NCBI GenBank assembly: GCA_966211815.1
Contig: CBIHOD010000005.1
Span: 55,803-119,802, forward strand
Origin: an uncultured Burkholderiales bacterium
GTDB lineage: Bacteria > Pseudomonadota > Gammaproteobacteria > Burkholderiales > Burkholderiaceae_C
Reading direction: 5' to 3'
Length of the DNA stretch: 64,000 bases
The translations under genes were made by a program, and so were the position numbers. The notes beneath the pieces were generated by a model. The model did not search any database. It was given only the letters and a program-made list of their open reading frames with translations, and was not told the origin of the DNA. Position 1 is the first letter of the stretch. Each line of letters begins with the position of its first letter. Positions 12,286 through 57,250 of the stretch are shown here, in pieces.

Positions 12286-12287
12286 TC

Positions 12288-27455: not shown

Positions 27456-27514
27456 ACCGCCGCCGGGTCTTTCCTTTCCTCTCGTTCAATCAACCCACAC
27501 AGGAGATGACAAGC

Positions 27515-28681: not shown

Positions 28682-28878
28682 GCGCCATCGGCCCGCGGCC
28701 GAGCGGGGCACGGGCCGCCCTGGCCTGGCATTACCCATGACGTCCGCGCAAGATGGGCATCGCCGATGGACCGCCGCCGGCGGTGCGGCGTATCCTCGGG
28801 TCGCTCCGCCGGGGTCTCCTCCCCGGGCGGTCGGCGGCCACAACGGTCAGCGACAACAACAAGAACCAGAGACAAGCC

Positions 28879-37843: not shown

Positions 37844-37866
37844 GCCACCTCCGGGTGGCTTTTTTG
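37844..37866 (+). terminator. Terminator/attenuator-like hairpin 40 nt upstream of the GTP cyclohydrolase II gene
   Basis: GCCACC-tccg-GGTGGC followed by TTTTTTG. Confidence 0.5.
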
Positions 37867-37905
37867 TTGTCGTGCTTTTCCTCGTCGTCCCCCGCGAGCC
37901 GTTTG

Positions 37906-39080: not shown

Positions 39081-39587
39081 TCAGCCGGGTTTGCCCAAGC
39101 CGCCGTCGATCCACGCGGCGGCGGTGCCCGCGGTCAATTTGAAATTCGCCGGCACGCGGACCCGCGCCAGGCGTTCGCCCAGCGTGTCGAACGCGGCCAG
39201 CAGGGCGTGCGGGTCGTCCTCGTCGGGCACGATGTCCAGCGTGACGGTGATGCGGCCGTTGGCGGCCGTGTCCACCGCGACGTTCTTGTGGTGGGCGGCG
39301 TGCAGCGCCTGCTCGTGGCGGCGGATCACCTCGCCGGCGGTCTTCACCAGCGTGTTGAAGGCGGCGGTGTCCAGCGGTTTGGGGTTTTTCTTGTCGCGGC
39401 CCATGGTCCAGGGGCCGACCAGGGCGGGCTCGGGCTCGCCGTCCTTGACCATCTCCACCGCCCAGCCTTCATCGTCCTCGTTCTTGACGACCCGGGCGGT
39501 CCATCCGTTGTCCCGCCACAGGCGGGCTTCCTTGACGCTCTCGGACGGATCGGCCGGCGCCAACGTGTCAGCAGGGGTGTTTTCCAT
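39081..39587 (-). CDS. Hypothetical acidic 168-aa protein, probably co-transcribed with the GspE-like ATPase
   Basis: Clean ORF 36 nt downstream of the ATPase stop on the same strand. No motif recognised. Confidence 0.55.
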   Translation of the reverse strand: MENTPADTLAPADPSESVKEARLWRDNGWTARVVKNEDDEGWAVEMVKDGEPEPALVGPWTMGRDKKNPKPLDTAAFNTLVKTAGEVIRRHEQALHAAHHKNVAVDTAANGRITVTLDIVPDEDDPHALLAAFDTLGERLARVRVPANFKLTAGTAAAWIDGGLGKPG

Positions 39588-39623: not shown

Positions 39624-42179
39624 TCACGCGTTGCTGGTCGCACGCACCTCCTCGATGCTGGTCAGGCCCGCCCAGACTTTGTCGATGCCGTCCTGCCTCA
39701 GCGTGCGCATGCCTTCGGCCATGGCGGCCTGCTGGAGCTGTTCGGCGCGGGCACCCGTCTGGATCAGCGCGCGCACCTCGCGGGAGACCACCATCAGTTC
39801 GTGCACGCCGACGCGGCCCTTGAAGCCACTGTGGTTGCAGGCGCCGCAACCGGTGCTGTGCCAGTGCATCAGGCGGCCGTCCTTGCCGTGGTTCTTCAAC
39901 CAGCCCGCCAGCACCTCTTCCCGAGCCACCGGCGGCTCGCCTTTGCCGAAGCCGTGCATCGCGTCGTCCAGCAGCTCGTGCACTTCTTCGTCGGTGGCGG
40001 GGCGCCTGAGCAGGCATTCCCTGCAGAGCCGGCGCACCAGGCGCTGCGCGAGCACCGCCAGCAGCGAATCGGCGAAGTTGAAGGGGTCCATGCCCATGTC
40101 GAGCAGCCGGGTGACGGTCTCGGGCGCGCTGTTGGTGTGCAGCGTGCTGAGCACCAGGTGGCCGGTGAGCGAAGCCTCGATGGCCGTCTGGGCGGTCTCG
40201 GCGTCGCGGATCTCGCCGACCATGATCACGTCCGGGTCGGCGCGCAGGAAGGCGCGCAGCGCCTTGGCGAAGGTCCATTCGATCTTCGGGTTGACCTGAA
40301 CCTGGCGCAGCCCGGGCTGCGTGATTTCGACCGGGTCTTCCGCCGTCCAGATCTTGCGCTCGGGCACGTTGATGTGGCTCAGCGCCGAATGCAGCGTCGT
40401 CGTCTTGCCCGATCCGGTGGGCCCGACGCACAGCACCATGCCGTAAGGCCGCTCGATCGAACGCTTCAGGGCGGCGAGGTTGGGCGCGGACAGCCCGATG
40501 CCGTCCAGCGGGATGGGCTTGGCCGAAGCCAGGATCCGCATCACCACGTCTTCCAGGTTGTTGTTGGTGGGGATCGCCGCCACGCGCAGCTCGATCCTGT
40601 GCTGCGCCGAGAACTTGGAGAAGTTGATCTTGCCGTCCTGGGGCTTGCGGCGCTCGGAGATGTCCAGGTCGCACATGATCTTGATGCGCGCCACCAGCGG
40701 GTTGCGGTAGTTCGACGGCAGCTCCAGGTAGGTGCGCAGCAGGCCGTCCTTGCGGAAACGGATGCGGATCTTCTCCCGGCCCGGGTAGCTCTCGATGTGG
40801 ATGTCGGAGACGCCTTCCTTGTGGGCCTCGATGATCATGGTGTTGATCAGCCGCACCAGCGAGTTGTCCGACTGCTCGATCTGCCTGTCCTCGTCCGCCA
40901 CCAGCGTGCTGACGTCGTCCTTCTCCAGCGATTCGAGCAGGCTGCTGCTGTCCTCCAGATCGAAGGACAGCGGCGAGCCGCTGTCGATGAAGCCCAGCTT
41001 GTTCGAAGGCGCCGCGCCGGCGCTGCTGTAGACCTCGAACAGCGTGTCGTCCATCGACTTGCACTGCGCCAGCACCGGCACCACCTTGGTCTGCGCGACG
41101 AACTCCACCTCGGCCAGGGCCGCGCCGCGCCGCGAAGGGTCGTCGATGGCCACCACCAGGCGGCCGTCGTGCAGCAGCAGCAGCGGCATCACGCCCAGGC
41201 GCAGCGCGCTCTGGTAGGGCACTTTCTTCAGCGCCGCCGGCTCGGCGGGGAAGCCTTCCAGGCGGACCAGCGGGTAGCCCATCTTGCGCGACAGCGCCGC
41301 CTGCAGGTCGGAGGGCGAGACCACCTTCATGCGCACCAGCAGCTCGCCCAGCGGGGTGCCGCGGTCCTTCTTCTGCTTGGCCAGCGCGTCGTCCAGCTGC
41401 TTCTCGTTGATCAGGCCCAGCGACACCAGGGCGTCGCCGATGCGCACCATCGGCATCTTGCTCTGGCGGTCCAGCGCTTCGAGCAACTGATCGGGCGAGA
41501 CGACCTGGTTCTGCAGCAGGATGTCGCCGATCTTCTGGTTGCGCAGTTGCTGCTGCAGCTCGGCCGCCTCTTCCACCTGGGCGGGCGTGGCCAGCGCCTG
41601 CTCGATCAGCAGTTCGCCGATGCGCGGCCCGACCTCCAGCTGCCTGTAGGCGGCCCTGGGCACGAACAGGTTCAGCACGCCGTCGCCCGAGGGCGTCGGC
41701 AGGAAAAGGAAGGCGCCGAAAGCTTCCTCCACATGGCCGAGCGTCTGGCCTTCCATCTCGCCGCCGCGTTCGAGCCGGATGCGGTAGGGCTGCGCCGCGA
41801 CGTTGCCGATCATCGCCGTCAGGGCCGGGTCGGCGTTGGCCACCGTCGGGCAGAGCGGCGTCGTCAGCCTCAGGCTCAGGAACTGGTCGAAACGCAGCGG
41901 CACGGTGGTGCGCGCCGGAGGGATCTGCACGTGCGCCACTTGCGCGTCCGGCACGAAGAAGGTCAACCGGCCCGACATGCGGTTGCCGTTCAGACCGGTG
42001 ATCTCGCAAGGGAGCGGGTCGGTCTGCGGTTCCGCGGCCGGGTAGTTCGCCGAAGGCGGCGTCGGCCATCGGAATGCTTCCAGGCTGGCTTTGCGGGGGT
42101 GGCCGCCGCCGGAAGCGGCCGCGTCGAAGGGCGCGGCCCCGGGCTCTTCCCACTGCAGTGGATTCAGCGTGTCCGCCAT
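39624..42179 (-). CDS. GspE/PilB-family secretion ATPase with an unknown N-terminal domain and four tandem MshEN-type motifs
   Basis: Walker A GPTGSGKTT, Asp/His boxes (MVGEIRD, LSTLHTN) and tetracysteine CRECL…CGACN. Four RIGxxL…LxxALxxQ repeats lie at residues 186-299. Start set at MADTLNP. Confidence 0.9.
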   Translation of the reverse strand: MADTLNPLQWEEPGAAPFDAAASGGGHPRKASLEAFRWPTPPSANYPAAEPQTDPLPCEITGLNGNRMSGRLTFFVPDAQVAHVQIPPARTTVPLRFDQFLSLRLTTPLCPTVANADPALTAMIGNVAAQPYRIRLERGGEMEGQTLGHVEEAFGAFLFLPTPSGDGVLNLFVPRAAYRQLEVGPRIGELLIEQALATPAQVEEAAELQQQLRNQKIGDILLQNQVVSPDQLLEALDRQSKMPMVRIGDALVSLGLINEKQLDDALAKQKKDRGTPLGELLVRMKVVSPSDLQAALSRKMGYPLVRLEGFPAEPAALKKVPYQSALRLGVMPLLLLHDGRLVVAIDDPSRRGAALAEVEFVAQTKVVPVLAQCKSMDDTLFEVYSSAGAAPSNKLGFIDSGSPLSFDLEDSSSLLESLEKDDVSTLVADEDRQIEQSDNSLVRLINTMIIEAHKEGVSDIHIESYPGREKIRIRFRKDGLLRTYLELPSNYRNPLVARIKIMCDLDISERRKPQDGKINFSKFSAQHRIELRVAAIPTNNNLEDVVMRILASAKPIPLDGIGLSAPNLAALKRSIERPYGMVLCVGPTGSGKTTTLHSALSHINVPERKIWTAEDPVEITQPGLRQVQVNPKIEWTFAKALRAFLRADPDVIMVGEIRDAETAQTAIEASLTGHLVLSTLHTNSAPETVTRLLDMGMDPFNFADSLLAVLAQRLVRRLCRECLLRRPATDEEVHELLDDAMHGFGKGEPPVAREEVLAGWLKNHGKDGRLMHWHSTGCGACNHSGFKGRVGVHELMVVSREVRALIQTGARAEQLQQAAMAEGMRTLRQDGIDKVWAGLTSIEEVRATSNA

Positions 42180-42531: not shown

Positions 42532-43440
42532 ATGAACCTCCGTTTCGTCGAAGCTTTCTACTGGGTCGTCTCGCTCAAAAGCGTTTCCCGCGCCGCGGAG
42601 AAGCTGTTCATCACGCAATCGGCGATGTCCAGCCGCATCGCCGCCCTGGAAGAGGAGCTGGGCGTGCTGCTGCTCGACCGGCGCGACAAGCAGTTCCGCC
42701 TCACGGTCGCCGGCCTGCGCTTCTTCAACCACGCGCAGAAACTGCTGGCGCTGCAGCGCGACATCAAGGCCGAGATGAGCGCCGCCGGGGGGAACGAGAC
42801 CGCCTCGGTGTCCCTGCGCATCGGGGTGATCGAATCGGTGCTGCACTCCTGGCTGATCGACTGGATCCAGCACATGCGCAAGAGCAGCACCGCGTTCGAG
42901 CTGGAACTGACGGTGGAAACCACGCCCGTGCTCGTGGACCACGTGCGCCGCGGCGCGCTCGACCTGGTCTTCTGCGCGCTGCCCACCGCGGGCGAGGGGG
43001 TGCGCAGCAGGGCGCTGCCGTCGATGGAAATGGTGTTCGTCGGCCACACCGAGCAGCACCGCAAGCGGGCCTACACGCTCGCGGAGCTGGCCGAGTTCGA
43101 GCTGCTGACCTTCCAGCGCGGCTCGCAGCCGCACGCGGCCCTGATGGACATGTTCCGCAACGCCGGCGTCGACCTCAAGCGCGTGCACAACATCTCGTCG
43201 ATCTCGGCGATGGTGCAACTGGTGGAGGGCGGCCTGGGCATCGCCACGCTGCCGATCGCCGCGGCGCAGCGCCTGGCCGAGCGGCTGCCCCTGAAAATCC
43301 TGAAATGCGACGCGTCGCTGTCGCCGCTGCCGGTGCATGCGAGTTACCGGGAAGACCCCACCTCCGGCGTCGCGGAGGACGTGGTGCAGGCGGTCCTGTC
43401 ATTCATTAGGGTTTCCACTGATCATCGAAAAAATCGATAA
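42532..43440 (+). CDS. LysR-family transcriptional regulator
   Basis: N-terminal wHTH (LRFVEAFYWVVSLKSVSRAAEKLFITQSAMSSRIAALEEELG) and a LysR substrate-binding domain. Confidence 0.9.
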   Translation: MNLRFVEAFYWVVSLKSVSRAAEKLFITQSAMSSRIAALEEELGVLLLDRRDKQFRLTVAGLRFFNHAQKLLALQRDIKAEMSAAGGNETASVSLRIGVIESVLHSWLIDWIQHMRKSSTAFELELTVETTPVLVDHVRRGALDLVFCALPTAGEGVRSRALPSMEMVFVGHTEQHRKRAYTLAELAEFELLTFQRGSQPHAALMDMFRNAGVDLKRVHNISSISAMVQLVEGGLGIATLPIAAAQRLAERLPLKILKCDASLSPLPVHASYREDPTSGVAEDVVQAVLSFIRVSTDHRKNR

Positions 43441-43522
43441 GACGATCAGTAAACAATGCGTTTGCCCGTGACAAGGTGTCACAACAGAATCCCCTCAACG
43501 TTGAAATAACACGGTCAACGGA

Positions 43523-44368
43523 ATGGAATTGGAGTCTGATGTGAACACCGCCATGGCAAACCCGTCCAGCGCCGCCAACCCCGCCGCACCGGCTCAAGAG
43601 GGCCGCCGCGCCCGCGCGCCGATCCGCAGCGGCGAATGGGTCTCCCACACCAGCGGCCTGAGCCGCGACCTCGTCCAGGGCAACCTCGTCATCCTGCCGG
43701 CCGACCTGGCCTCGGACTTCCTGCGGTTCTGCCAGCGCAACCCCAAGCCTTGCCCCTTGCTGGCGGTGTCCGAGCCGGGCGACCCGATGCTGCCCACGCT
43801 GGGCGAGGACATCGACATCCGCAGCGACGTGCCCCGCTACCGGGTCTGGCGCAACGGCGAGCTGGTCGACGAGCCCACCGACATCTCCTCGCTCTGGCGC
43901 GACGACCTCGTCACCTTCGTCATCGGCTGCTCCTTCTCGTTCGAGCAGGCGCTGCTGGACGCCGGCCTGCCGCTGCGCCACGTGGCCCAGAAGCGCAACG
44001 TGGCCATGTACCGCAGCAACATCGCCACCGCGCCGGCCGGCCCGTTCAACGGCCCGATGGTCGTCTCGATGCGCCCGCTGAAGGCGGCCGACGCGATCCG
44101 CGCGATCCAGATCACCTCGCGCTTCCCGAACGTGCACGGCGCGCCGGTTCACATCGGCGACCCGGCCCTGATCGGCATCAAGGACGTGACGCGCCCCGAC
44201 TACGGCGACGCGGTGGAAGTGATGCCCGACGAGCTGCCGGTGTTCTGGGCCTGCGGCGTGACGCCCCAAGCGGCCATCGCCCAGGCGCGGCCCGAGTTTT
44301 GCATCACCCACGCGCCGGGCTCGATGCTGATCACCGACCTGCCCAACCACCAGCTGGCCAGTTTCTGA
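43523..44368 (+). CDS. Putative hydro-lyase, D-glutamate cyclase family (UPF0317/DUF1445)
   Basis: [28 protein letters not shown] … [10 protein letters not shown] … VSMRP … [10 protein letters not shown] … FWACGVTPQ pattern. An alternative start lies at 43553. Confidence 0.78.
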
Positions 44369-44440
44369 CCGGCGCCGACGCGCCCGCCGCCCGTGTGACT
44401 TAGTCCCCGTCCTTCCAACAACCCGTAGAGGAGTCTTGCG

Positions 44441-45415
44441 ATGAAGAAACTAGTGTTCGCCTGTGCAGCCACCATCGTGGCGTCCATGGCCCAGGCCGAG
44501 ACAAAATGGGACCTGCCTTCGGGCTACAACACCAACACCTTCCAGGTGCAGAACCTCCAGTACTTCGCGGACGAGGTCGACAAGGCCACGGGCGGCAAGC
44601 TCAAGATCACCATCCACCCCAACGCGTCGCTGTTCAAGGCCAACGAGATCAAGCGCGCCGTGCAGAGCGGCCAGTCGCAGATGGGCGAGTTCATCCTGTC
44701 CAGCGCCTCCAACGAGAACCCGCTGTTCGGCCTGGATTCCATCCCCTTCCTGGCCACGACCTACACCGAGGCCAAGAAGCTGAGCGACATCTCCAACCCC
44801 CAACTGGAGAAACTGCTCGCCTCGCAAGGCATCAAGCTGCTCTACACCGTGCCCTGGCCCGGCCAGTCGCTTTACACCAAGAAGCCCGTCGCCTCGATGC
44901 AGGATTTGAAGGGCACCAAGATGCGCGCCTACAACCCCGCCACCTCGCGCATCGCCGAATACGTCGGCGCCCAGCCCGTCACGGTGCAACTGGCCGAGCT
45001 GCCCGCGGCGCTCGCCACCGGCACCGTCGACAACTTCCTGACCTCCAGCGCCAGCGGCGTGGACAGCAAGCTCTACGAATACGTCAAGTACTTCTACGAC
45101 GTCAACGCCTGGCTGCCGCGCAACGCGCTGGTGGTGAACCAGAAGGCCTTCGACGCCCTGGACAAGGCCACCCAGGCCACGGTGCTCAAGATCGCCGCCG
45201 CCGCCGAGGCCCGCGGCTGGAAGGAAAGCCAGCGCATCGACGACGAGTACGTCAAGACCCTCGAAGCCAAGGGCATGACGATCGACCGCGGCAGCGAGGC
45301 CCTCAAGCGCGAGCTGAAAGTCATCGGCGGCCGCATGACCGGCGAATGGCTGCGCCCGGCGGGCGACGAAGGCAAGGCGATCATCGACGCCTACCGCGCC
45401 GCCACCGGCAAGTAA
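44441..45415 (+). CDS. dctP: TRAP transporter substrate-binding protein (DctP family)
   Basis: Signal peptide followed by a DctP-type fold pattern (…LKITIHPNASLFKANEIKRAVQSGQSQMGE… KMRAYNPATSRIAE…). Confidence 0.88.
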   Translation: MKKLVFACAATIVASMAQAETKWDLPSGYNTNTFQVQNLQYFADEVDKATGGKLKITIHPNASLFKANEIKRAVQSGQSQMGEFILSSASNENPLFGLDSIPFLATTYTEAKKLSDISNPQLEKLLASQGIKLLYTVPWPGQSLYTKKPVASMQDLKGTKMRAYNPATSRIAEYVGAQPVTVQLAELPAALATGTVDNFLTSSASGVDSKLYEYVKYFYDVNAWLPRNALVVNQKAFDALDKATQATVLKIAAAAEARGWKESQRIDDEYVKTLEAKGMTIDRGSEALKRELKVIGGRMTGEWLRPAGDEGKAIIDAYRAATGK

Positions 45416-45559
45416 CCCCCTCCATCCCAAGGCGGCAGTCCCCCATCCACGCGCGCCCCGGCGTCTGCCGGGGCGCGGGGGAGAACTGTTGCCTGGCTTG
45501 AGTCGCCCCGGGGCGGTTCAAGCCAGACAGACCGCGTCTTCAGCAGCACGGCGAACCCC

Positions 45560-46201
45560 ATGAACAACGCAGTACGAAAGAGCAGTCCCGGGTTGGCGCC
45601 GGTGCCGGCGGAGGCCGCGGCCGCAAACGCCAGCCCCGCCATCCCCGCGAAGACGGCGGCCGGGCCGCTGCGCCGCTTCCTCGACGCCCTCTACCTGGCC
45701 GGCGGCGGCATCGGCGCTTTCTTCGTCGCGCTGATCGCGGTTTTCATGATCGCCCAGAGCGTGCTGCGGGAGTTCGGCGTCTCCACCGGTGCGATCAACG
45801 ACTATGTCGCCTGGTTCTGCGCCGCGGCGGGCTTCTTCACGATGGCGCACGCGCTCAAGCACGGCGACTTCGTGCGGGTGACGCTGCTGCTGGAGAAAGT
45901 CGGGCCCAGGACCCGCCACCTGCTCGAACTCCTGTCGCTCGGCGTCGCCTCGGCGTCGGTGGTCTACCTCGCCTACTGGGCCTGCAAGTTCACCTACGAA
46001 AGCTGGCTTTTCAAGGAGATGTCGCAGGGCCTGGTGGCGGTTCCGATCTGGATACCGCAGACCAGCTTCGCCGCGGGCTCCCTGCTGCTGGCGGTCGCGG
46101 TGGTCGACGAATTCATCATCGTCCTGCGCGGCGGCGTGCCCACCTATGTGCGCGCGGTGGCCGAGCGCCACGCCCAGGGCGATTTCTCTTCCGAAGTCTG
46201 A
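45560..46201 (+). CDS. dctQ: TRAP transporter small permease (DctQ family)
   Basis: Four TM helices and correct position between dctP and dctM. The N-terminal ~35 aa may not be translated. Confidence 0.72.
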   Translation: MNNAVRKSSPGLAPVPAEAAAANASPAIPAKTAAGPLRRFLDALYLAGGGIGAFFVALIAVFMIAQSVLREFGVSTGAINDYVAWFCAAAGFFTMAHALKHGDFVRVTLLLEKVGPRTRHLLELLSLGVASASVVYLAYWACKFTYESWLFKEMSQGLVAVPIWIPQTSFAAGSLLLAVAVVDEFIIVLRGGVPTYVRAVAERHAQGDFSSEV

Positions 46202-46225
46202 TCGTTGCCACCGGGAGTAATGACC

Positions 46226-47536
46226 ATGGATATCTTGACGATGGGTGGCATCCTGCTGCTGTTGATGGTGCTGCTGCTGTCCGGCGGCGTATGGATCGCG
46301 ATGACGCTGGCGATCTGCGGCTGGGTGGGGCAGGCGTTCTTCGTCTCCACCCGCCCCGGCCCCAACCTGTTCTCGGCCTTCTGGGAAAGCAATGCCAGCT
46401 GGGAACTGGCCGCCTTGCCGCTGTTCATCTGGATGGGCGAGATCCTCTTCCGCAGCAAGCTCAGCGAGGAGATGTTCGAGGGCCTGAGCCCCTGGCTGGG
46501 CCGCGTGCCGGGCCGGCTGATGCACACCACCATCCTGGGCTGCGGCATCTTCGGTTCCGTCTCGGGCTCATCGGCCGCCACTTGCGCGACCATCTCCAAG
46601 GTGGCGCTGCCGGAACTGATGCGGCGCGGCTACAACGAGAAGATCGCCCTGGGTTCCCTGGCCACCGCCGGCACGCTGGGCATCCTTATCCCGCCGTCGA
46701 TCACCATGGTGGTCTACGCGGTGGCCGCGGACGCCTCGATCATCCGCATCTTCCTGGCGGGCTTCCTGCCCGGCTTCCTGCTGATGGCGCTGTTCTCGGG
46801 TTACATCGCATGGTGGTCCATCCGCAACAAGGATCAGATGCCGCCGGCCGAGCCGAGGATGAGCTTCAAGGAAAAGCTCTACCACTCGCGCAAGCTCATC
46901 CCCTGCGCCGGCCTGATCGTCTTCGTCGCCTGGGTGCTGGTCGCCGGCTACGCCACCGCCACCGAATGCGCGGCCTACGGCGTGCTCGGTTCCCTGGTGC
47001 TGGCGCTTTGGAGCCGCTCCCTGAGCTGGCAGGCTTTCAAGGACGGCCTGATGGGCGCCTCGCGCACCAGCTGCATGATCATGTTCATCCTCGCGGGCGC
47101 CGCCTTCCTGACCAAGACGATGGCCTTCACCGGCATCCCCCGCGAGTTGGCCGCCACGGTCGAAGCGATGCACCTTTCGCCCTATGCGCTGATCGCGGTG
47201 CTGGTGGTGGTGTACCTGGTGCTGGGCACCGCCCTGGACGGCATCAGCATGATCGTGCTGACCAGCGCCGTGGTGCTCCCGATGATCCAGACCGCCGGCT
47301 TCGACCTGGTGTGGTTCGGCATCTTCGTGGTGCTGCTGGTGGAGATCGCCGAGGTGACGCCGCCGGTGGGCTTCAACCTCTTCGTGCTGCAGAGCATGAC
47401 CGGCAAGGACAGCAACGTGATCGCCAAGGCGGCCATCCCGTTCTTCATGTGCCTGGTGGCCTGCATCGCCCTGGTGACCATCTTCCCCGAGATCGTGACC
47501 TTCCTGCCCGACTACGTGATGGGCAAGGAGAAGTAG
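46226..47536 (+). CDS. dctM: TRAP transporter large permease (DctM family)
   Basis: About 12-TM protein with DctM-like motifs (…GILIPPSITMVVYA…, …EVTPPVGFNLFV…). The track start at 46205 is TTG, so the ATG at 46226 is preferred. Confidence 0.9.
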   Translation: MDILTMGGILLLLMVLLLSGGVWIAMTLAICGWVGQAFFVSTRPGPNLFSAFWESNASWELAALPLFIWMGEILFRSKLSEEMFEGLSPWLGRVPGRLMHTTILGCGIFGSVSGSSAATCATISKVALPELMRRGYNEKIALGSLATAGTLGILIPPSITMVVYAVAADASIIRIFLAGFLPGFLLMALFSGYIAWWSIRNKDQMPPAEPRMSFKEKLYHSRKLIPCAGLIVFVAWVLVAGYATATECAAYGVLGSLVLALWSRSLSWQAFKDGLMGASRTSCMIMFILAGAAFLTKTMAFTGIPRELAATVEAMHLSPYALIAVLVVVYLVLGTALDGISMIVLTSAVVLPMIQTAGFDLVWFGIFVVLLVEIAEVTPPVGFNLFVLQSMTGKDSNVIAKAAIPFFMCLVACIALVTIFPEIVTFLPDYVMGKEK

Positions 47537-47656
47537 CGACGATCGGCGGTCCGGCGCCCTGGAGGAAGTGGCGCCCGGCGACCGCGGCTCAGCGCGACCG
47601 AGAGGCTGAGGCTCCCTGATTCCCGTTCCCTGTTGTTGACGAACCTGGAGTGCGCC

Positions 47657-48634
47657 ATGACTGACCGCAGAGATTTTTGCGCCCTGATCGCAGGCCTGGG
47701 GCTCCTGCAAGGCACCGGCCGGGCTCAGGCCCAGGCGACTTGGAAACTCGCCACCGGCTACAGGGCCGAGTCGTTCCACGGCCAGAACCTGCAGCAATTC
47801 ATCAAGGACGTGGCTGCCGCGGGCCTGAAGATCGATCTGCAGCCGAACAACAGCCTCTTCAAGCTGGCGGAGATCGCCGGCGCGGTGCGCGACGGCAAGG
47901 TGGAGAGCGGCGAGACCATCATGACCAGCCTGGTCAAGGACATGCCGCTGGCCGGCGCCGACTCGGTGCCCTTCATCGTCCGCACCTACGAAGACAGCCG
48001 CCGCCTGTGGAAGCACCAGCGGCCGCTGATCGAGAAGAAGTTCGCCGCCGAGGGCCTCAAGCCGCTGTTCGCCGTGCCCTGGCCGCCGCAGGGCCTCTAC
48101 ACCAACAAGCCGATCAACCGCGCCGCGGACCTCAAGGGCACCAAGATGCGCACCTACAACAGCACCACCCAGCGCATCGCCCAGCTGCTGGGCGCCACCC
48201 CGGTCGACGTGCCGATGGTGAACGTGGGGCAGGCCCTGGCCGACGGCCGCATCGACTGCATGATCACCTCGGCGGTGACGGGCGTGGAGAACCAGGTCTG
48301 GGACCACGTGAAGAACTACTACGAGATCAACGCCTGGTTCCCCAAGAACATCACCTTCGCCAACGCCAAGGCCTACGCCGCGCTGCCGGAGCAGACCCAG
48401 AAGGCCGTGGCGGCCGCCGCCGCGACCGCGGAGTCGCGCGGCTGGGCGGCCAGCGAAAAGGCCGCGGCCGAATCGGTGGAAGAGCTGCGCAGGCACGGCA
48501 TGAAGATCGAACGCATCTCTTCCGAATTCCTGGCCGACATCAAGCGCATGGGCGAGCGCTTCTCGGTGGAGTGGGTGAGGGAAGTGGGCATCGAGGCCAA
48601 TGACATCTTCATCCCTTATTACACGCAGCAATGA
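47657..48634 (+). CDS. Second DctP-family TRAP substrate-binding protein (Tat-type leader)
   Basis: RRDFCALIAGLGLL leader. Clear paralogue of 44441-45415 (…LKIDLQPNNSLFKLAEIAGAVRDGKVESGE… KMRTYNSTTQRIAQ…). Confidence 0.85.
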   Translation: MTDRRDFCALIAGLGLLQGTGRAQAQATWKLATGYRAESFHGQNLQQFIKDVAAAGLKIDLQPNNSLFKLAEIAGAVRDGKVESGETIMTSLVKDMPLAGADSVPFIVRTYEDSRRLWKHQRPLIEKKFAAEGLKPLFAVPWPPQGLYTNKPINRAADLKGTKMRTYNSTTQRIAQLLGATPVDVPMVNVGQALADGRIDCMITSAVTGVENQVWDHVKNYYEINAWFPKNITFANAKAYAALPEQTQKAVAAAAATAESRGWAASEKAAAESVEELRRHGMKIERISSEFLADIKRMGERFSVEWVREVGIEANDIFIPYYTQQ

Positions 48635-48761
48635 CCGCGGCATGGCGGCCACGGGCCTGAAATGCCCAGGGGGCGCCCCACGCCGATCGGCCGACGGCGC
48701 GGGGCCCGTGATCCAGAACAAACGGCTGGCAAACCTTACCGAAAATCCATTGGAGTCCAAG

Positions 48762-50030
48762 ATGAAAGCAAGATGGTTCCCGAAATTCGCGCTCGGCGCG
48801 GTCGCCCTGGCCTTCGCGGCCACGGCCGGCGCCCAGGCGCAGGAGATCAAGATCGGGGTGGTCTACCCCCTGACCGGCGCCGCGGCGTCCAGCGGCGCGG
48901 AGATGCGCAACTCGCTGGAACTGGCGGCCGACATCATCAACAACGGCGCCAAGGGCATCCCCGACCTGCCGTTCTCCGCAGGCGGCGGCATCCCCGGCCT
49001 CAAGGGCGCCAAGATCAAGCTCGTGTTCGCCGACCACCAGGGCAACCCGCAGACCGGGGCGACCGAGACCGAGCGCCTGATCAGCCAGGAGAAAGTGGTC
49101 GCCGTCGTCGGCGCCTACAACAGCAACGTCACCGCCACCGCCAGCCAGGTGGCCGAGCGCAGCAAGATCCCCTTCGTCAACCCCGAGTCCTCCTCGCCCA
49201 GCCTGACCGCGCGCAACTTCAAGTGGTTCTTCCGCGTCACGCCGCATGAAGACCTCTTCGTGCACAACTTCTTCGACTTCCTCAAGGAGCTGAAGCAGAA
49301 GAAAGGCATCTCGGTCGAGCGCATCGGCCTGATGAACGAGAACACCCTGTTCGGCAACGACACCACCAAGATCGAGACCAAGCTGGCCAATGAGCAGGGC
49401 TACAAGCTGGTGAGCTCGGTGACTTACCCGGCCAAGAGCACGCAGCTGACCTCCGAAGTGCAGACGCTCAAGGCGGCCGCGCCTCAAGTGGTGATGCAGG
49501 CCTCCTACCTGGGCGACGCGCTGCTGGCGATGAAGTCGTACAAGGAACTGGGCTTCACGCCGGACATGATCATGGCCAACGGCGCCGGCTTCTCCGACAC
49601 CGAGTTCATCAAGACCCTCGGCAAGGACGCCGAGTACGTCATCAGCCGCGACATCTGGGCCCTCGACCTGGCGGCGCAGAACCCGCTGATCAAGCAGGTG
49701 AACGACCTGTTCCGCGCCCGCTACAAGATCGACTTCACCGGCAATTCCTCGCGCACCTTCACCGGGCTGATGGTGCTGGCCGACGCGCTGAACCGCGCCG
49801 GCTCCACCGAGCCCGAGGCGCTGCGCAAGGCGCTGGCCGAGACTGACATCCCCGGCAGCAAGCTGATCATGCCCTGGAAGGGCGTGAAGTTCGACGCCAC
49901 CGGCCAGAACGTCAACGGCTCCGGCATCCTGGTGCAGATCCGCGACGGCAAGTACACGACGGTCTGGCCCTTCGACGTCGCCACCAAGGAACTGGTCTGG
50001 CCGATGCCGAAGTGGGACCAGCGCAAATGA
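48762..50030 (+). CDS. ABC substrate-binding protein, branched-chain amino-acid (Peripla_BP_6 / LivK-like) family
   Basis: Signal peptide followed by IKIGVVYPLTGAAASSGAEMRN… and VVAVVGAYNSNVT…. Confidence 0.87.
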   Translation: MKARWFPKFALGAVALAFAATAGAQAQEIKIGVVYPLTGAAASSGAEMRNSLELAADIINNGAKGIPDLPFSAGGGIPGLKGAKIKLVFADHQGNPQTGATETERLISQEKVVAVVGAYNSNVTATASQVAERSKIPFVNPESSSPSLTARNFKWFFRVTPHEDLFVHNFFDFLKELKQKKGISVERIGLMNENTLFGNDTTKIETKLANEQGYKLVSSVTYPAKSTQLTSEVQTLKAAAPQVVMQASYLGDALLAMKSYKELGFTPDMIMANGAGFSDTEFIKTLGKDAEYVISRDIWALDLAAQNPLIKQVNDLFRARYKIDFTGNSSRTFTGLMVLADALNRAGSTEPEALRKALAETDIPGSKLIMPWKGVKFDATGQNVNGSGILVQIRDGKYTTVWPFDVATKELVWPMPKWDQRK

Positions 50031-50182
50031 CGGGACACCGCCCCCGGCGGACCTGAAGCGATGACCGCCGGCACCGGGGCCCCGTGCGCCGGGCCGGCGG
50101 CCCACACCCACCAACCCGACAAAAGAACAAATGACTTTCCCCGCTGTACCCCGCGCCGGCGCGGGGGGAAGAAGGAACCCAC

Positions 50183-51049
50183 ATGACCTTTGAAATACTG
50201 CTCCAGACGCTCGCATCCGGCGTGCTGATCGGCCTGATCTACGCGCTGGTCGCGATCGGGCTGACGATGATCTTCGGTGTCATGGACATCGTGAACTTCG
50301 CCCACGGCGAGTTCCTCATGCTGGGCATGTACTCCAGCTTCTGGCTCTTCTCCCTCTACGCGCTCGACCCGATGCTGACGCTGCCGCTGACGGTCGTGAT
50401 GCTGTTCGGCTTCGGCGTGCTGCTCTACAAGACCGTGATCAAGCGCATCATCGACGCGCCGATGGTCAGCCAGATCTTCACCACCTTCGGCCTGATGCTG
50501 CTGCTGCGCGGTGTGGCCCAGTTCCTGTGGAAGCCCGATTTCCGATCCATCGAGAACTCGTGGGTGAGCGGCGGCGTCAACCTCGCCGGCATCCAGCTCG
50601 GCCTGCCGCAGCTCGTGGCCGGCGTGGGCGCCATCCTGGTGACGGGCGCGGTCTACCTTTTCCTGCACCGCACCAAGGCGGGCGCCGCGCTGGAAGCCAC
50701 CGCGGCGGACAAGGAAGCCGCCCGGCTGATGGGCATCGACTCGCACAAGATGTTCGGCATGGCCTGGGGCATCGGCGCGGCCTGCGCCGGGGCGGCCGGC
50801 GTGCTCCTGGCGACCTTCTTCCCGATCTTCCCGGAAGTCGGCGCCACCTTCATCCTGCTGGCCTTCGTGGTCGTGAACCTCGGCGGATTCGGCAGCGTCA
50901 CCGGCGCCTTCTGGGGCGGGATCATCATCGGCGTGGTCGAGGTGATGGGCGGCCTGCTCGTCGGCCCGCAATACAAGCTGGCCATCGTGCTGGCGCTCTT
51001 CCTTGGCGTGCTGATGTTCCGCCCGCAAGGCCTGATGGGGAAAGCCTGA
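50183..51049 (+). CDS. livH: Branched-chain amino-acid-type ABC permease (LivH family)
   Basis: LIGLIYALVAIGLTMIFGVMDIVNFAHGEF motif and 8 TM helices. Confidence 0.9.
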   Translation: MTFEILLQTLASGVLIGLIYALVAIGLTMIFGVMDIVNFAHGEFLMLGMYSSFWLFSLYALDPMLTLPLTVVMLFGFGVLLYKTVIKRIIDAPMVSQIFTTFGLMLLLRGVAQFLWKPDFRSIENSWVSGGVNLAGIQLGLPQLVAGVGAILVTGAVYLFLHRTKAGAALEATAADKEAARLMGIDSHKMFGMAWGIGAACAGAAGVLLATFFPIFPEVGATFILLAFVVVNLGGFGSVTGAFWGGIIIGVVEVMGGLLVGPQYKLAIVLALFLGVLMFRPQGLMGKA

Positions 51050-51051
51050 CC

Positions 51052-52100
51052 ATGAAAACCCAACTCATCCCCGCGCGCCTGCGCGGCAACGCCACCGTCT
51101 CCATGCTGGCCATGGCGGCTTCGGCCCTGGTCGCCGTCGCCGTCCCCTTCGTGGTCGACAGCCCGAGCCACCTGAACCTCGCCATCCTCGTGCTGATGGC
51201 CGCCCAGGTGGGCGTAGCCTGGAACATCCTGGGCGGATACGCCGGCCAGGTGTCGCTCGGCCACGTCGCCTTCTACGGCCTGGGCGCCTACACCTCGACG
51301 CTGCTGCTGATGAACTTCGGCTGGAACCCCTGGCTGGCGATGCTGGCCGGCGGCGTGACCGCCGCGGTGCTGAGCCTGGCCTTCGGCTGGTCCTGCTTCC
51401 GCCTGAAAGGCCATTATTTCGCGATGGCCACCATCGCCGTGGCCGAGATCCTGCAGATCGTGTTCACCAACTGGGAATACGCCGGCGCGGCCGTCGGCCT
51501 GACCCTGCCGATGGACAAGACGGGTTGGGCGCACATGGTGTTCTCCGACAAGGAGCCCTACTACTGGCTGGCCCTGGGCCTGCTGGTGGTGACCCTGCTG
51601 GCCACCCTGGCGATCGAGCGCAGCTTCCTGGGCTACTACCTGCGGGCCATCAAGGACGAGCCCGACGCCGCGCGCAGCATCGGCGTGAACATCAGCCTGT
51701 ACAAGCAGGTCGCGCTGTCGATCAGCGCCTTCTTCACCGCGATGGGCGGCAGCCTCTACGCGCAGAAGGAGCTCTACATCGACCCGGGTTCCGTGCTTTC
51801 GACGGCGATGTCGATCAAGATGGCCCTGGTCTCCATCCTGGGGGGCGTGGGCACGCTGTTCGGCCCGGTGGTGGGTTCGGTGGTGCTGACCACGATCGAA
51901 GAGATCACCCGGTCCACCTTCGGCGGCTCCGGCCGCGGCACCGACTTGATCATCTACGCCGGCCTGATCGTCGTGATCGCCGTCTTCTACCCCAGCGGCG
52001 TGCTGGGCTGGTGGCGTGCCCGAGCCGAGCGGGCACGCGCCCGCCAGGCGCACGCCGCCGGCAACCACCCCCAAGCCGTCCCGCAGAAAGGAGGCGCGCT

Positions 52101-52104
<4 letters not shown>
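51052..52104 (+). CDS. livM: Branched-chain amino-acid-type ABC permease (LivM family)
   Basis: GGYAGQVSLGHVAFYGLGAYT motif, immediately after livH. Confidence 0.9.
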
Positions 52105-52814
<710 letters not shown>

Positions 52815-52815
52815 C

Positions 52816-53574
52816 ATGAGGCAGCACACATCATCCAACCACGGCGCCGCCGCCAAAGTGCGGGGCGGCCGGCTCGAAGCCTCCAACCTGCGCGTGAGCT
52901 ACAGCGGGATCCTGGCCCTGTCCGACGTCACCGTGAAAGTCGAGCCGGGCCGCATCGTCGCGCTGGTGGGCGGCAACGGCAACGGCAAGTCGACCACGCT
53001 GCGCGCCATCGCCGGGCTCAACGGCGTGGACGCCGGCGCCGTCACCTTCGACGGCCAGCCGGTCCACAGGCTGCCCGCGCACCAGCGCGTGCCGCTGGGC
53101 CTGTCGCTGGTGCCCGAGGGCCGCCGCCTCTTCCCGCGGTTGACGGTGCGCCGCAACCTCGAACTCGGCGCCTACACCCGAGACGACAAGGACGGGATCG
53201 CGTCGGACATCGACAACATGTTCGCCCAGTTCCCCATCCTGCGCGAGCGCGCCGACCAGCTCGCCGGCACGATGAGCGGCGGCGAGCAGCAGATGCTGGC
53301 CATCGCCCGCGGCCTGATGGCCCGCCCGCGGCTGCTGATGCTGGACGAGCCCTCCTGGGGCATCGCGCCGAAATTCGTGACCAAGGTGCTGGACGTGATC
53401 CAGGAAGTCAACGCCACCGGCGTGTCCATCCTGCTCGTGGAGCAGAACCTCCACAAGGCGCTGGGCATCGCCCACCACGGCTACGTCATCCAGACCGGCC
53501 GCATCGTGATGGAAGGCGACGCGCAGGCCCTGATGCACGACGAACAGGTGAAGAAGGTTTATCTCGGCTTGTGA
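52816..53574 (+). CDS. livF: ABC ATP-binding protein (LivF family)
   Basis: GGNGNGKST Walker A, MSGGEQQMLAI signature and LLMLDEPS Walker B. Confidence 0.9.
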   Translation: MRQHTSSNHGAAAKVRGGRLEASNLRVSYSGILALSDVTVKVEPGRIVALVGGNGNGKSTTLRAIAGLNGVDAGAVTFDGQPVHRLPAHQRVPLGLSLVPEGRRLFPRLTVRRNLELGAYTRDDKDGIASDIDNMFAQFPILRERADQLAGTMSGGEQQMLAIARGLMARPRLLMLDEPSWGIAPKFVTKVLDVIQEVNATGVSILLVEQNLHKALGIAHHGYVIQTGRIVMEGDAQALMHDEQVKKVYLGL

Positions 53575-53638
53575 AGGGCCGCGGCCCGACAAGTGACGAC
53601 CGCCGCGAGGCGCAAACAAACACTGCGAAGGAAAGACG

Positions 53639-56600
53639 ATGAAAAACAGCCAAACCCAAGGAAAAGCCCTCTGGCAATTCTGGATCGACCGCGGTGGCAC
53701 GTTCACCGACCTGGTCGGCAAGAAGCCCGACGGCACGCTCGTCACGCACAAGCTGCTGTCCGAGAACCCCGAGCAATACCGCGACGCCGCGGTCGCCGGC
53801 ATCCGCCACCTGCTCGGCTTGAAGGCCGGCGAGCCGATCACCCCCGACCTCGTCGAGTGCGTGAAGATGGGCACCACGGTGGCCACCAACGCGCTGCTGG
53901 AGCGCAAGGGCGAGCCCACGCTGCTGGTGACCACCCGCGGTTTCCGCGACGCGCTGCGCATCGCCTACCAGGACAGGCCGCGGCTGTTCGACACCCACAT
54001 CGTGCTGCCCGAGCTGCTGTACGAGCGCGTCGTCGAGGCCCAGGAGCGTGTCGGCGCGGACGGCGAGGTGGTGCAGCCCCTGGCCGAGGCCCACCTGCGC
54101 ACCGAGCTGCAGGCCGCCTACGACGACGGCCTGCGCAGCGTCGCCATCGTCTTCATGCACGGCTACCGCTACACCGCCCACGAGCTGGCGGCGGCGCGCA
54201 TCGCCCGCGAAGTGGGCTTCCCGCAGATCAGCGTGTCGCACCAGGTCAGCCCGCTGATGAAGCTCGTCTCGCGCGGCGACACCACGGTGGTCGACGCCTA
54301 CCTGTCGCCCATCCTGCGCCGCTACGTCGAGCAGGTGGCCGGCGACATGCCGGGCGTGAAACTGTTCTTCATGCAGTCCTCCGGCGGACTGACCGACGCC
54401 CACGCCTTCCAGGGCAAGGACGCCATCCTCTCCGGCCCGGCCGGCGGCATCGTCGGCATGGTGCGCACCGCCCAGCTGGCCGACTTCGACAAGGTGATCG
54501 GCTTCGACATGGGCGGCACGTCCACCGACGTGTCGCACTACGCCGGCGAGTTCGAGCGCGCCTTCGAGACCCAGGTGGCGGGCGTGCGCATGCGCGCGCC
54601 GATGATGAGCATCCACACTGTGGCGGCCGGCGGCGGCTCGGTGCTGACCTTCGACGGCGCGCGCTTCCGCGCCGGCCCCGAAAGCGCCGGCGCCAACCCC
54701 GGCCCGGCCTCCTACCGCCGCGGCGGCCCGCTGGCCGTGACCGACGCGAACGTGATGCTCGGCAAGATCCAGCCCGCCTTCTTCCCCAAGGTGTTCGGCC
54801 CGAAGGCCGACGAATCGCTCGACCGCGACGTGGTGGTCAAGCGATTCTCCGACATGGCCGCCGAGATCGAGCGTTCCACGGGCACCAAGCGCACGCCCGA
54901 GGAGGTGGCCGAAGGCTTCATCGACATCGCCGTGGGCGCCATGGCCAACGCCATCAAGAAAATCTCGGTGGCGCGCGGCTACGACGTGACCCGTTACACC
55001 CTGCAATGCTTCGGCGGCGCGGGCGGCCAGCACGCCTGCCTGGTGGCCGACGCCCTGGGCATGACCAAGGTCTTCGCCCATCCGCTGGCCGGCGTGCTGT
55101 CGGCCTACGGCATGGGCCTGGCCGACCAGAACGTGATCCGCGAAGCCGCCGTGGAGCAGCCGCTGGCCTCCGCGATGGAAACGGTCGCGCAGAAGCTGGG
55201 TGCCCTGGCCGACGAGGCCGAGGGCGAGCTGCGCCGCCAGGGCGTCAGCGGCGGCGAAATCAAGGTGCACCGCCGCGTGCACGTGCGCTACCAGGGCACC
55301 GATTCCGCCCTGGTCGTGCCCTTCGGCGCGCCGGGCGAGATCCAGGCGGCGTTCGAGACCGCCTACCGCCAGCGCTTCGCCTTCCTGATGAACGAGCGGG
55401 CGCTCGTGGTCGAGGCGGTGTCCGTCGAAGCGGTGGGCGCGGGCGACGCGCCGGCCGAGCAGCGCCACGCCGTGTCCAGGAAGGAGCCGGCGCCGGTCGA
55501 GTCGCGCGTGAAGATGTTCAGCGGGGGCAAGTGGCACGACGCGGCCCTCGTGGTGCGCGCCAGCACCCGGCCCGGCCACGTGGTCGACGGCCCGGCCATC
55601 ATCTCCGAGAAGAACGCCACCACCGTCGTGGAGCCCGGCTGGCAGGCGGTCGTCACCGACCTGGACCACCTGGTCCTGGTGCGGGTGAAGGAGCGCGAGG
55701 CGCGCAAGGCCATCGGCACCTCGGTCGACCCGGTGATGCTGGAGGTGTTCAACAACCTCTTCATGAACATCGCCGAGCAGATGGGCCTGCAGCTGCAGAA
55801 CACGGCCTACTCGGTGAACATCAAGGAGCGGCTGGACTTCTCCTGCGCGCTGTTCGACGCCCAGGGCAACCTGATCGCCAACGCGCCGCACATGCCGGTC
55901 CACCTCGGTTCGATGAGCGAATCCATCAAGACGGTGATGGAAGGCAACGCCGGCAAGATGAAGCCGGGCGACGTGTTCGCGCTGAACGACCCCTACCACG
56001 GCGGCACCCACCTGCCCGACGTGACCGTGGTGACGCCGGTGTTCGACGACGCCGGCAAGAAGATCCTTTTCTACGTCGGCTCGCGCGGGCACCACGCCGA
56101 CATCGGCGGCACCACGCCGGGCTCCATGCCCCCGTTCTCGACCCGCATCGAAGAGGAGGGCGTGCAGATCAACAACGTCAAGCTCGTCGACCAGGGCCGG
56201 CTGCTGGAGGCCGAGATGGTGGCGCTGCTGTCCAGCGGCGAATACCCCTCGCGCAACCCGCAGCAGAACATCGCCGACATGCGGGCGCAGATCGCCGCCA
56301 ACGAGAAGGGCGTGCAGGAGCTGCGCAAGATGGTCGAGCAGTTCGGCCTTGACGTGGTCCAGGCCTACATGGGCCACGTGCAGGACAACGCGGAAGAGTC
56401 GGTGCGCCGCGTCATCACCAAGCTCAAGGACGGCCACTTCACGCTGCCGCTGGACAACGGCGCGCAGATCAGCGTGGCCATCAAGGTCGACACCGCGGCG
56501 CGCAGCGCCAAGATCGACTTCACCGGCACCTCGGCCCAGCTGGGCAACAACTTCAACGCGCCCAAGGCGGTCTGCATGGCCGCGGTGCTGTACGTCTTCC

Positions 56601-57250
56601 GCACGCTGGTGGGCGACGAGATCCCGCTGAACGCCGGCTGCCTGAAGCCGCTGGAGGTGGTCGTGCCGGCGGGGTCGATGCTCAACCCGCTGCCGCCGGC
56701 CTCGGTCGTCGCGGGCAACGTGGAGACGTCCACCTGCATCACCAACGCCCTGTACGGCGCGCTGGGCTCGATGGCCGCCGGCCAGTGCACGATGAACAAC
56801 TTCACCTTCGGCAACGACACCCACCAGTACTACGAAACCATCTCCGGCGGCTCCGGCGCCGGCCCGGGCTTCGACGGCACGAGCGTCGTGCAGACGCACA
56901 TGACCAATTCGCGGCTGACCGACCCCGAGGTGCTGGAGTTCCGCTTCCCGGTGCGGCTGGACAGCTACGAGATCCGCCAGGGCTCGGGCGGCGCGGGCAA
57001 ATACCGCGGCGGCGACGGCGGCATCCGCCGGGTCCGCTTCCTGGAAAAGATGACGGCGTCCATCCTTTCCAACGGCCGCAACAGCGGCGCCTTCGGCGCG
57101 GCCGGCGGTTCGCCGGGCCAGCCCGGCGTGAACCGGGTGGAGCGCGCCGACGGCCGGGTCGAGACGCTGGGCCACATCGGTTCCACCGAGATGCAGCCGG
57201 GCGACGTGTTCGTCATCGAAACCCCGGGCGGCGGAGGCTACGGCGCATGA
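53639..57250 (+). CDS. Fused hydantoinase A/B-type ATP-dependent lactam hydrolase (5-oxoprolinase-like, 1203 aa)
   Basis: N-terminal [15 protein letters not shown] and [10 protein letters not shown] (HyuA). C-terminal [11 protein letters not shown] and ETxGGGGYG (HyuB). Single polypeptide. Confidence 0.92.

Follow-up and report, generated by a model that had tools for sequence, protein, structure and literature searches.

An Orphan PilB/MshE-Type ATPase of a Burkholderiales Bacterium, with a Predicted c-di-GMP Receptor Region, Belongs to a Family Found in Some Relatives at the Head of MSHA-Type Pilus Clusters

The described systems closest to the gene examined here are MshE, the extension ATPase of the mannose-sensitive hemagglutinin (MSHA) pilus of Vibrio cholerae (PDB 5HTL), PilF of Thermus thermophilus (6f8l and 8pdk), TfpB of Acinetobacter baylyi, and the PilB-PilZ-FimX complex of Xanthomonas citri. 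The 24-residue motif of the MshEN type, which binds cyclic di-GMP (c-di-GMP), has been published (PMC5013675). In PilF, the GSPII-A domain requires Arg at position 1 and Gln at position 24 of both motifs, and Gly3 for high affinity (PMC12002112); Lys or Leu at position 1 is tolerated, even favorable, in PilF, with Lys compatible with high-affinity binding in GSPII-B, and GSPII-C has three motifs, one with Pro at its start, yet binds (PMC11731258). TfpB is a phylogenetically distinct second extension motor, nonsyntenic with pilC and with a role distinct from that of PilB (PMC8213720; PMC11656802). In X. citri, the MshEN-like N-domain of PilB is the dock for a small β-barrel protein that relays c-di-GMP. 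Here we analyze a gene for an ATPase of 851 amino acids (aa) in a 64,000-nucleotide stretch of DNA (“the window”) from an uncultured Burkholderiales bacterium (GenBank assembly GCA_966211815.1, contig CBIHOD010000005.1, positions 55,803 to 119,802). Pilus machinery is absent from the window, but some members of the gene's family (“the long-ATPase family”) head MSHA-type pilus clusters in related genomes.

As read from its translation, the window gene encodes a catalytically intact, hexamer-type motor ATPase of the PilB/MshE family. Walker A, Asp box, Walker B, and His box are all intact, the tetracysteine Zn motif of assembly-type ATPases is present (Table 1), and the Pfam model T2SSE (PF00437) matches residues 436 to 845 with 404.7 bits against a gathering score of 24.9 (E = 3.8e-121). 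An initial annotation made from the sequence alone had described a complete secretion ATPase with GPTGSGKTT, MVGEIRD, LSTLHTN, and CxxC…CxxC, which translation and Pfam bear out; the predicted c-di-GMP receptor region at residues 186 to 389 was not mentioned in it. The start (MADTL...) is supported by alignment with 19 homologues, the open frame running on to a TTG at position 42389, 5′ of the ATG used, and the G+C content at third codon positions (GC3) of 0.91 is typical for genes of this 67%-GC window. The nearest solved structure is Thermus PilF 6f8l (E = 1.7e-117, query residues 202 to 848), followed by PilB and then GspE. With a match to the Pfam model MshEN (PF05157; 47.0 bits against a cut-off of 23.1, E = 2.5e-12), sequence comparison places the protein in the PilB/MshE/GspE superfamily and in the MshEN receptor class. 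Its scores fall under the curated cut-offs of the equivalog models for PilB (TIGR02538; 535.5 against 675.65 bits) and GspE (TIGR02533; 467.1 against 630.25 bits) and of the TfpB model (NF053534; 387.7 against 850 bits).

Compared with V. cholerae MshE, the window protein shares the T2SSE core, all motor motifs, the Zn site, and an MshEN region with 24-residue motifs, and its relatives are likewise encoded in MSHA-type operons, beside a separate canonical MshE; it differs in having four motifs rather than two, 6-residue rather than 5-residue spacers, an extra 185-residue N-terminal module (“the N-module”), and a length of 851 rather than ∼575 aa. In Thermus PilF, which is the sole extension motor of its pilus, the N-terminal regulatory extension is likewise long and contains more than two c-di-GMP motifs; the three motifs of the PilF GSPII-C domain, one of them Pro initial, align to motifs B, C, and D of the window protein. 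However, PilF repeats whole GSPII domains (three), whereas the window protein combines one full GSPII/MshEN domain with an additional pair of motifs and an unrelated module of two β-barrels, and the window family accompanies MshE. TfpB resembles the family in being a second PilB-like ATPase on a pilus with its own motor and in that its gene may lie apart from that of the platform (PMC8213720), but it has ∼584 aa, lacks the extra N-module, and serves a T4a competence pilus rather than an MSHA-type system.

Surveying the neighborhoods of orthologues, as the initial annotation had suggested, places the family gene first in an MSHA-type pilus cluster in at least 10 related loci (L030, L031, L109, L119, L120, L132, L142, L148, L168-L171, and L172-L173). 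GC3-based gene calls in the fetched loci missed some genes (e.g., MshE in L030), and the linkage survey was redone with tblastn, linkage being counted at locus level among loci with enough downstream sequence (n = 105). In a subset of relatives, the gene after the family ATPase encodes a canonical MshE-like ATPase of 570 to 630 aa, 34 to 37% identical to the family protein; this partner gene is annotated by the Joint Genome Institute (JGI) as “MSHA biogenesis protein MshE.” In L148 and L132, the family gene is followed on its 3′ side by genes for the MshE-like ATPase, T2SSF, N-methyl pilins, a large DUF6701/LamG or PA14 protein, PilM, and PilN. In L120, the operon continues with a PilM-like gene, two small genes, an MshL-type secretin (best match MshL, just under the cut-off at 246.9 against 250.2 bits), an ExeA/MshM-like ATPase, a TPR protein, MshE, and a GspF-type platform, which we take to be the gene order of V. 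cholerae mshI-J-K-L-M-N-E-G. The linked members include those of the cultured strains Piscinibacter defluvii SH-1, Piscinibacter caeni MQ-18, and Rhizobacter sp. SG703.

The spacing within the linked loci is tight. In P. defluvii, the stop codon of the family gene overlaps the start codon of MshE in a shared ATGA (read directly), and in L168 the two genes overlap by 4 nt and T2SSF begins 1 nt past MshE; these overlaps point to one translationally coupled operon. Gene order across the linked loci shows that the home context of the family is at the start of an MSHA-type pilus operon, with MshE and T2SSF coming next, and because the family gene precedes an operon with its own canonical MshE, it also shows the family protein as a putative second, accessory ATPase of the MSHA-type pilus rather than its sole motor. 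The separate adjoining MshE means that the family protein, at 34 to 37% identity, is not the MshE orthologue; by the tests applied, the window ATPase is neither PilB, GspE, TfpB, nor MshE. The tight coupling to mshE, together with the separate c-di-GMP motifs of the family protein and with the lack of any dedicated retraction ATPase in MSHA clusters (V. cholerae borrows PilT; PMC9815625, PMC7096442), would also suit an antagonist or retraction-type motor that competes with MshE for the platform as c-di-GMP changes and gives no aid to extension. We regard this as improbable, given an architecture of the extension type (N1/MshEN plus the tetracysteine Zn site) and nearest relatives that are PilF, PilB, and GspE, with matches to the PilT family being far weaker (171 bits against a cut-off of 319; E of ∼1e-30 among solved structures).

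The whole layout is seen in Rhizobacter sp. SG703, in which the order is D-Glu cyclase … DctP-DctQ-DctM, family ATPase, MshE, T2SSF, pilins, DUF6701, PilM-like, PilN, and secretin. The families upstream of the SG703 gene are those that flank the window gene, so that the window appears to hold the same junction without the pilus cluster. Conversely, the same hydantoinase/TRAP (tripartite ATP-independent periplasmic) transporter block in L175 (positions 1-21779; ENA ERZ25039499 contig_21450) leads straight into MshE, T2SSF, pilins, DUF6701, PilM, and PilN, and the family gene is absent. As judged from gene content, the junction thus occurs with both elements, with the pilus cluster alone, or with the ATPase alone, and the window shows the third of these states. 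In a neighbor-joining tree without support values, linked members branch at five or more separate points of the intact clade, interspersed with orphans. These comparisons suggest that the “orphan” puzzle is largely explained at the level of the family.

They also bear on a case that the initial annotation had itself raised, namely, that the window protein is the sole motor of a complete type II secretion system, type IV pilus, or MSHA cluster lying outside the window. The ATPase is intact, and Thermus PilF is likewise encoded away from its machine. A precedent for remote encoding of a pilus ATPase is also provided by TfpB (PMC8213720). Such a role is nonetheless very improbable for the window protein: the case was not seen in any linked locus, a canonical MshE of the size and identity given above adjoining the family gene in every one; the L175 cluster has MshE alone; and the scores lie under the PilB, GspE, and TfpB cut-offs.

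Within the window, genes called across all 64 kb were scanned with Pfam, and tblastn with MSHA cluster proteins was added. No T2SSF/PilC, pilin, secretin, PilM-Q, or prepilin peptidase gene was found in positions 1-64000 by these means, and PilB-type synteny with pilC/pilD and an msh-type operon are both absent from this stretch. The statement in the initial annotation that no platform, pilin, secretin, or PilM-Q gene lies nearby therefore holds over the whole window, and the neighbors that it had named (GTP cyclohydrolase II, a 168-aa protein, and a LysR regulator) are those obtained by gene calling. The 168-aa open reading frame (ORF), which it had put forward as a candidate partner, did not stand up. 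This ORF has native-like codons (GC3 of 0.92) and lies 36 nt downstream of the ATPase, at the position that MshE occupies in relatives; it was rejected as a partner on the grounds that it has no Pfam or NCBIfam match, has no tblastn match in 87 related loci, and is absent from a 96%-identical relative. It is unique to the window and hence no conserved partner.

The only recurrent neighbors of the window gene and its close relatives are LysR, D-Glu cyclase, TRAP transporter, and hydantoinase genes, all on the upstream side, and families of this block (Table 1) also flank the gene in L001-L004 and in 29 to 37 of the 105 loci. TRAP or hydantoinase genes occur in about a third of loci, and in 29 of 105 the immediately preceding gene, read in the same direction, is DctM (median gap, 72 nt), as might be expected if the ATPase worked with the adjacent TRAP transporter and hydantoinase (oxoprolinase) genes instead of a pilus. 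We find this scarcely credible. In the window and its nearest relatives, the block is inverted relative to the ATPase (divergent, with LysR between), and in L175, which lacks the family gene, that block adjoins MshE directly, which marks it as a chromosomal neighborhood and not an operon partner. We are aware of no functional connection of T2SSE ATPases with TRAP transporters, and a functional link to the TRAP transporter was set aside as synteny only on the basis of L175 and the variable orientation. Promoter and terminator scans around the ATPase gene gave nothing above chance bearing on the gene.

Several lines of evidence favor c-di-GMP binding by the region at residues 186 to 389. First, the NCBIfam model NF053729 (a 53-residue c-di-GMP motif domain) matches in two stretches with 96.6 bits against a cut-off of 38, the best being residues 246 to 298. 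Second, four MshEN-type 24-residue motifs, A to D, begin at residues 186, 216, 246, and 276, with a strict 30-residue period and 6-residue spacers, and G3, L6, L17, and Q/K24 are invariant in 121 family sequences. The canonical receptor layout is two motifs (R/K1, G3, Q24) with a 5-residue spacer; of the four motifs in the window protein, A to C carry the key residues and D has P1 and K24. Third, an AlphaFold2 model of residues 180 to 400 (predicted local distance difference test score [pLDDT] of 85.9) consists of four helical hairpins followed by an α/β subdomain, with motifs C and D forming a 4-helix bundle and a pLDDT of 90 to 97 over C, D, and the C-terminal subdomain. These ∼140 residues superpose on the c-di-GMP-bound GSPII-B domain of PilF (8pdk) with a template modeling (TM) score of 0.81 to 0.83 and a root mean square deviation of 2.4 Å, and on V. 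cholerae MshEN (5HTL) with a TM score of 0.78 to 0.81. Judged by the published residue rules for PilF (PMC12002112, PMC11731258), motif A (R…Q), motif B (K…Q), and motif C (R…Q) are predicted to be binding competent, and at least one complete c-di-GMP site is therefore predicted in the four-motif region. Assignment to PATAN/PatA_N (DUF4388, PF14332) was rejected: its match scores 21.9 bits against 25 and covers residues 213 to 251, on and around motif B and outside the N-module. As a separate observation, a gene at 28753-31740 (+), ∼8 kb from the ATPase, encodes a 995-aa PAS-PAS-GGDEF diguanylate cyclase; this gene is unconserved in related loci (a cluster of one), so that its proximity to an ATPase with c-di-GMP motifs is probably coincidental.

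Residues 1 to 185 match no Pfam or NCBIfam model in the window protein, as the initial annotation had also found. AlphaFold2 modeled residues 30 to 190 with a pLDDT of 88.2 and a predicted TM score of 0.85 as an all-β structure of two lobes of five to six strands each, unlike the standard GspE N1 domain. The most deeply conserved element of the N-module is WPxPP, just before lobe 1, of which W, P, and PP are invariant over 18 sequences, down to 29% identity. Foldseek searches of the PDB with the pair of lobes gave weak matches to tandem Tudor/SH3-like barrels (53BP1, FMRP, and kin17; best E of 2.8e-3, TM score of 0.24 to 0.3), and single lobes resemble the PHF1 Tudor domain, Hfq, and KOW domains; because of these matches, the modeled fold is placed in the SH3/Tudor-like class, without a close solved relative. 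The Pfam family DUF6982, which has no known function and no mention in the literature searched, matches the N-modules of 6 of 10 relatives, once above the gathering score (25.8 against 24.5 bits, spanning both lobes) and five times below it; the window copy gave no match to it even at an E value of up to 10. A phmmer search with residues 1 to 215 against 1.84 billion cluster representatives returned 356 matches, all at the extreme protein N terminus, and all 10 full-length matches scanned had the architecture N-module–MshEN–T2SSE. By these matches, the N-module is confined to the N terminus of the long-ATPase family. The PilB(N) domain of the X. citri complex (7lkm) resembles the model of residues 180 to 400 with a TM score of 0.74 to 0.77, and whereas the β-barrel is a separate protein there, the β-barrel module of the window family is fused in cis; the N-module gave no PilZ signal in Pfam or in the top 50 Foldseek matches, and a functional analogy with PilB-PilZ-FimX is speculative.

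The full-length window protein has thousands of homologues, the top 120 of which are all ∼840 to 880 aa long and 65 to 96% identical to it over their full length. Scanning GTDB species genomes with an N-module alignment confirmed 418 loci/species, all in Ideonella, Rhizobacter, Piscinibacter, Methylibium, Aquabacterium, Rubrivivax, Ramlibacter, Hydrogenophaga, and unnamed Burkholderiales, with an Ideonella metagenome-assembled genome (MAG) as the closest match to the window (94%). As far as the scan reaches, the long-ATPase family does not extend beyond the Rubrivivax-Rhizobacter-Piscinibacter-Ideonella group of Burkholderiales. The complete set of catalytic motifs and the two CxxC pairs are retained in 65 of 65 full-length genome-encoded members. 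A few MAGs contain two intact, unlinked paralogues that are ∼64% identical (L050/L070, L069/L077, and L044/L053). A sister branch of 858 to 962 aa (P0144, P0147, P0160, P0178, P0187, and P0215; loci L088, L090, L093, L100, L102, L133, and L164) retains the N-module and MshEN region but has SGRT in Walker A (K→R), EERIE for the Asp box, and no His box; its members are presumably pseudo-ATPases. Their neighborhoods contain housekeeping and unannotated genes without a recurrent partner. At L088 (13195-14330), a degenerate member is followed on the same strand by bactofilin and TPR genes and preceded on its 5′ side by two codirectional genes (885 and 390 aa) without a Pfam match.

The window copy is itself maintained. 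Compared with a 96%-identical orphan relative, its ratio of nonsynonymous to synonymous substitution rates (dN/dS) is 0.107 overall, 0.16 in the N-module, 0.09 in the MshEN region, and 0.075 in the ATPase core; comparisons with distant relatives were saturated and left unused. By this measure, purifying selection acts on each of the three regions of the window copy. Such constraint on every domain, seen between two orphans in a family of which ∼92% of loci are unlinked, raises the possibility that orphan copies no longer serve a pilus and act as stand-alone c-di-GMP-responsive signaling or remodeling ATPases, the N-module binding a nonpilus target, comparable to the regulation of exopolysaccharide by PilB of Myxococcus xanthus. 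PilB as a signaling protein has precedent (PMC5544727, PMC11656802), the retention of the N-module and MshEN region in the dead-ATPase branch suggests a binding or scaffold role, and some MAGs hold two intact paralogues, both unlinked. However, members with and without linkage mix within one clade and are not told apart by any sequence signature, the platform-docking parts of the motor (MshEN C-subdomain, N2, C-terminal domain [CTD], and Zn site) are fully conserved, and no alternative conserved partner gene was found across 160 loci. We consider a stand-alone role possible but doubtful.

On balance, we lean toward reading the window protein as a c-di-GMP-gated accessory pilus motor that acts in trans, parted from its machine. 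Of the two options given in the initial annotation, the first, a machine encoded elsewhere, is thus favored by the pilus-cluster linkage in at least 10 loci; the second, a nonsecretion role, is retained as a rival for the orphan copies. We propose the following mechanism. (i) c-di-GMP would bind the four-motif MshEN region, and a second input would enter via the WPxPP/double β-barrel N-module. (ii) Both inputs would control docking of the hexamer on a platform of the MshG/PilC type, putatively encoded elsewhere in the genome. (iii) ATP hydrolysis would then drive or modulate pilus assembly together with MshE. The proposed parallel is TfpB working with PilB in A. baylyi.

Four observations weigh against this interpretation. 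First, linkage to pilus genes is seen in only ∼8 of the 105 family loci whose downstream sequence is long enough, and most copies, that of the window included, are orphans. Second, L175 has the cluster at the same junction without the family gene, so the family gene appears to be dispensable for the pilus machine in some lineages. Third, motif D (P…K) departs throughout the family at two positions that PilF GSPII-A requires for binding, and because of this deviation c-di-GMP binding by the canonical C+D bundle is uncertain. Fourth, the sister branch keeps the N-module and MshEN region despite its dead motifs, which indicates that family function can be ATPase independent.

Table 1. Coordinates of the window ATPase, its domains and motifs, and its neighboring genes (position 1 is the first nucleotide of the window)
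Feature	Position	Strand	Basis or remarks
Complete coding sequence, long PilB/MshE-type ATPase with N-terminal module	39624..42179	-	ORF list; 851 aa from ATG
Variable leader (residues 1-35), probably disordered	42075..42179	-	Poorly conserved, length variable in alignment
WPTPP (residues 38-42), family motif WPxPP	42054..42068	-	Translation; alignment
N-module (residues 36-185), two small SH3/Tudor-like β-barrel lobes (~56-105, 130-183)	41625..42074	-	AlphaFold2 model
MshEN-type motif A (residues 186-209), RIGELLIEQALATPAQVEEAAELQ	41553..41624	-	Fits relaxed published motif; R1, G3, Q24 kept in 114-121/121 sequences
MshEN-type motif B (residues 216-239), KIGDILLQNQVVSPDQLLEALDRQ	41463..41534	-	K1, G3, Q24 conserved
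MshEN-type motif C (residues 246-269), RIGDALVSLGLINEKQLDDALAKQ, near-canonical	41373..41444	-	Fits relaxed motif; R1, G3, G10, L17, L21, Q24 invariant or nearly so
MshEN-type motif D (residues 276-299), PLGELLVRMKVVSPSDLQAALSRK, deviant (P1, K24)	41283..41354	-	P1 in 120/121, K24 in 121/121 sequences
MshEN C-terminal α/β subdomain (residues 300-389)	41013..41282	-	Pfam MshEN; model superposition
T2SSE ATPase core (N2 + CTD, residues 436-845)	39645..40874	-	Pfam T2SSE
Walker A, GPTGSGKTT	40398..40424	-	Direct translation
Asp box, EDPVE	40326..40340	-	Direct translation
Walker B, VIMVGEIRD	40203..40229	-	Direct translation
His box, LSTLHTN	40131..40151	-	Direct translation
Tetracysteine Zn site	39837..40025	-	CREC 40014-40025, CGAC 39837-39848; direct translation
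GTP cyclohydrolase II	37855-39051	+	Gene call/Pfam
168-aa ORF without family assignment	39081-39587	-	Gene call
LysR regulator	42532-43440	+	Gene call/Pfam
Synteny block (LysR, D-Glu cyclase, TRAP DctP/Q/M, second DctP, ABC genes, hydantoinase A/B)	42532..57250	+	Pfam; marks the junction at which the pilus cluster of relatives lies across the ATPase gene

Other features of the window were noted in passing. The GTP cyclohydrolase II is 398 aa long, with the catalytic domain confined to residues 200 to 364, and its N-terminal extension of ∼195 residues matches a PRK08815-type RibA model below the cut-off. The 751-aa frame at 26426-28681 (+) has a Bmp/PnrA substrate-binding domain confined to residues 419 to 693 and is probably overextended or spans two genes. 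The stretch at 10042-13097 has a lower GC content (0.62 to 0.65); its ORFs at 10042-10560 and 10550-11359 have no Pfam match, and no gene was called from 11359 to 13097. A gene for RiPP (ribosomally synthesized and posttranslationally modified peptide) modification of the MbnB/TglH/ChrH type (DUF692) and a DoxX gene lie at 61067-62086 and 62825-63538 (+). Because the relative L004 carries BufA1-MbnB-HvfC beside the same synteny block, a bufferin-type RiPP locus is suggested near the DUF692 and DoxX genes of the window.

The searched literature held no description of an assembly ATPase that joins a double β-barrel N-module to four MshEN motifs, of the part of this family as second ATPase in MSHA-type clusters, or of the dead-ATPase sister branch. 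Among names encountered there, TapV of Ralstonia, described as an “orphan novel T4P assembly protein,” belongs to the LysM/TPR proteins and is not an ATPase, and the “mshA” of the Rubrivivax EmbRS paper is an unrelated polysaccharide-cluster gene; both were discarded. A more far-reaching reading, rather unlikely in our estimation, is that the family represents a previously undescribed two-ATPase MSHA-type system in which the long ATPase is a separable sensor-motor, its N-module and double c-di-GMP site integrating a second signal, and in which orphan and pseudo-ATPase copies are pilus-independent c-di-GMP effectors, which would make the protein a new class of c-di-GMP receptor ATPase and more than a spare motor of the pilus.

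Type IV pilus extension was long thought to depend on one motor, with TfpB of Acinetobacter as the first clear exception. The family described here would be a second, independent two-motor case, in MSHA-type pili and in at least 418 species of soil and freshwater Burkholderiales, and it adds a c-di-GMP region that is unusual in its four motifs and an N-terminal domain specific to the family. Its linked, orphan, and catalytically dead copies provide natural comparison sets, and Rhizobacter sp. SG703, P. defluvii SH-1, and P. caeni MQ-18 are cultured strains for genetics. The family also shows how an “orphan” motor gene can arise, through loss or relocation of the neighboring machine.

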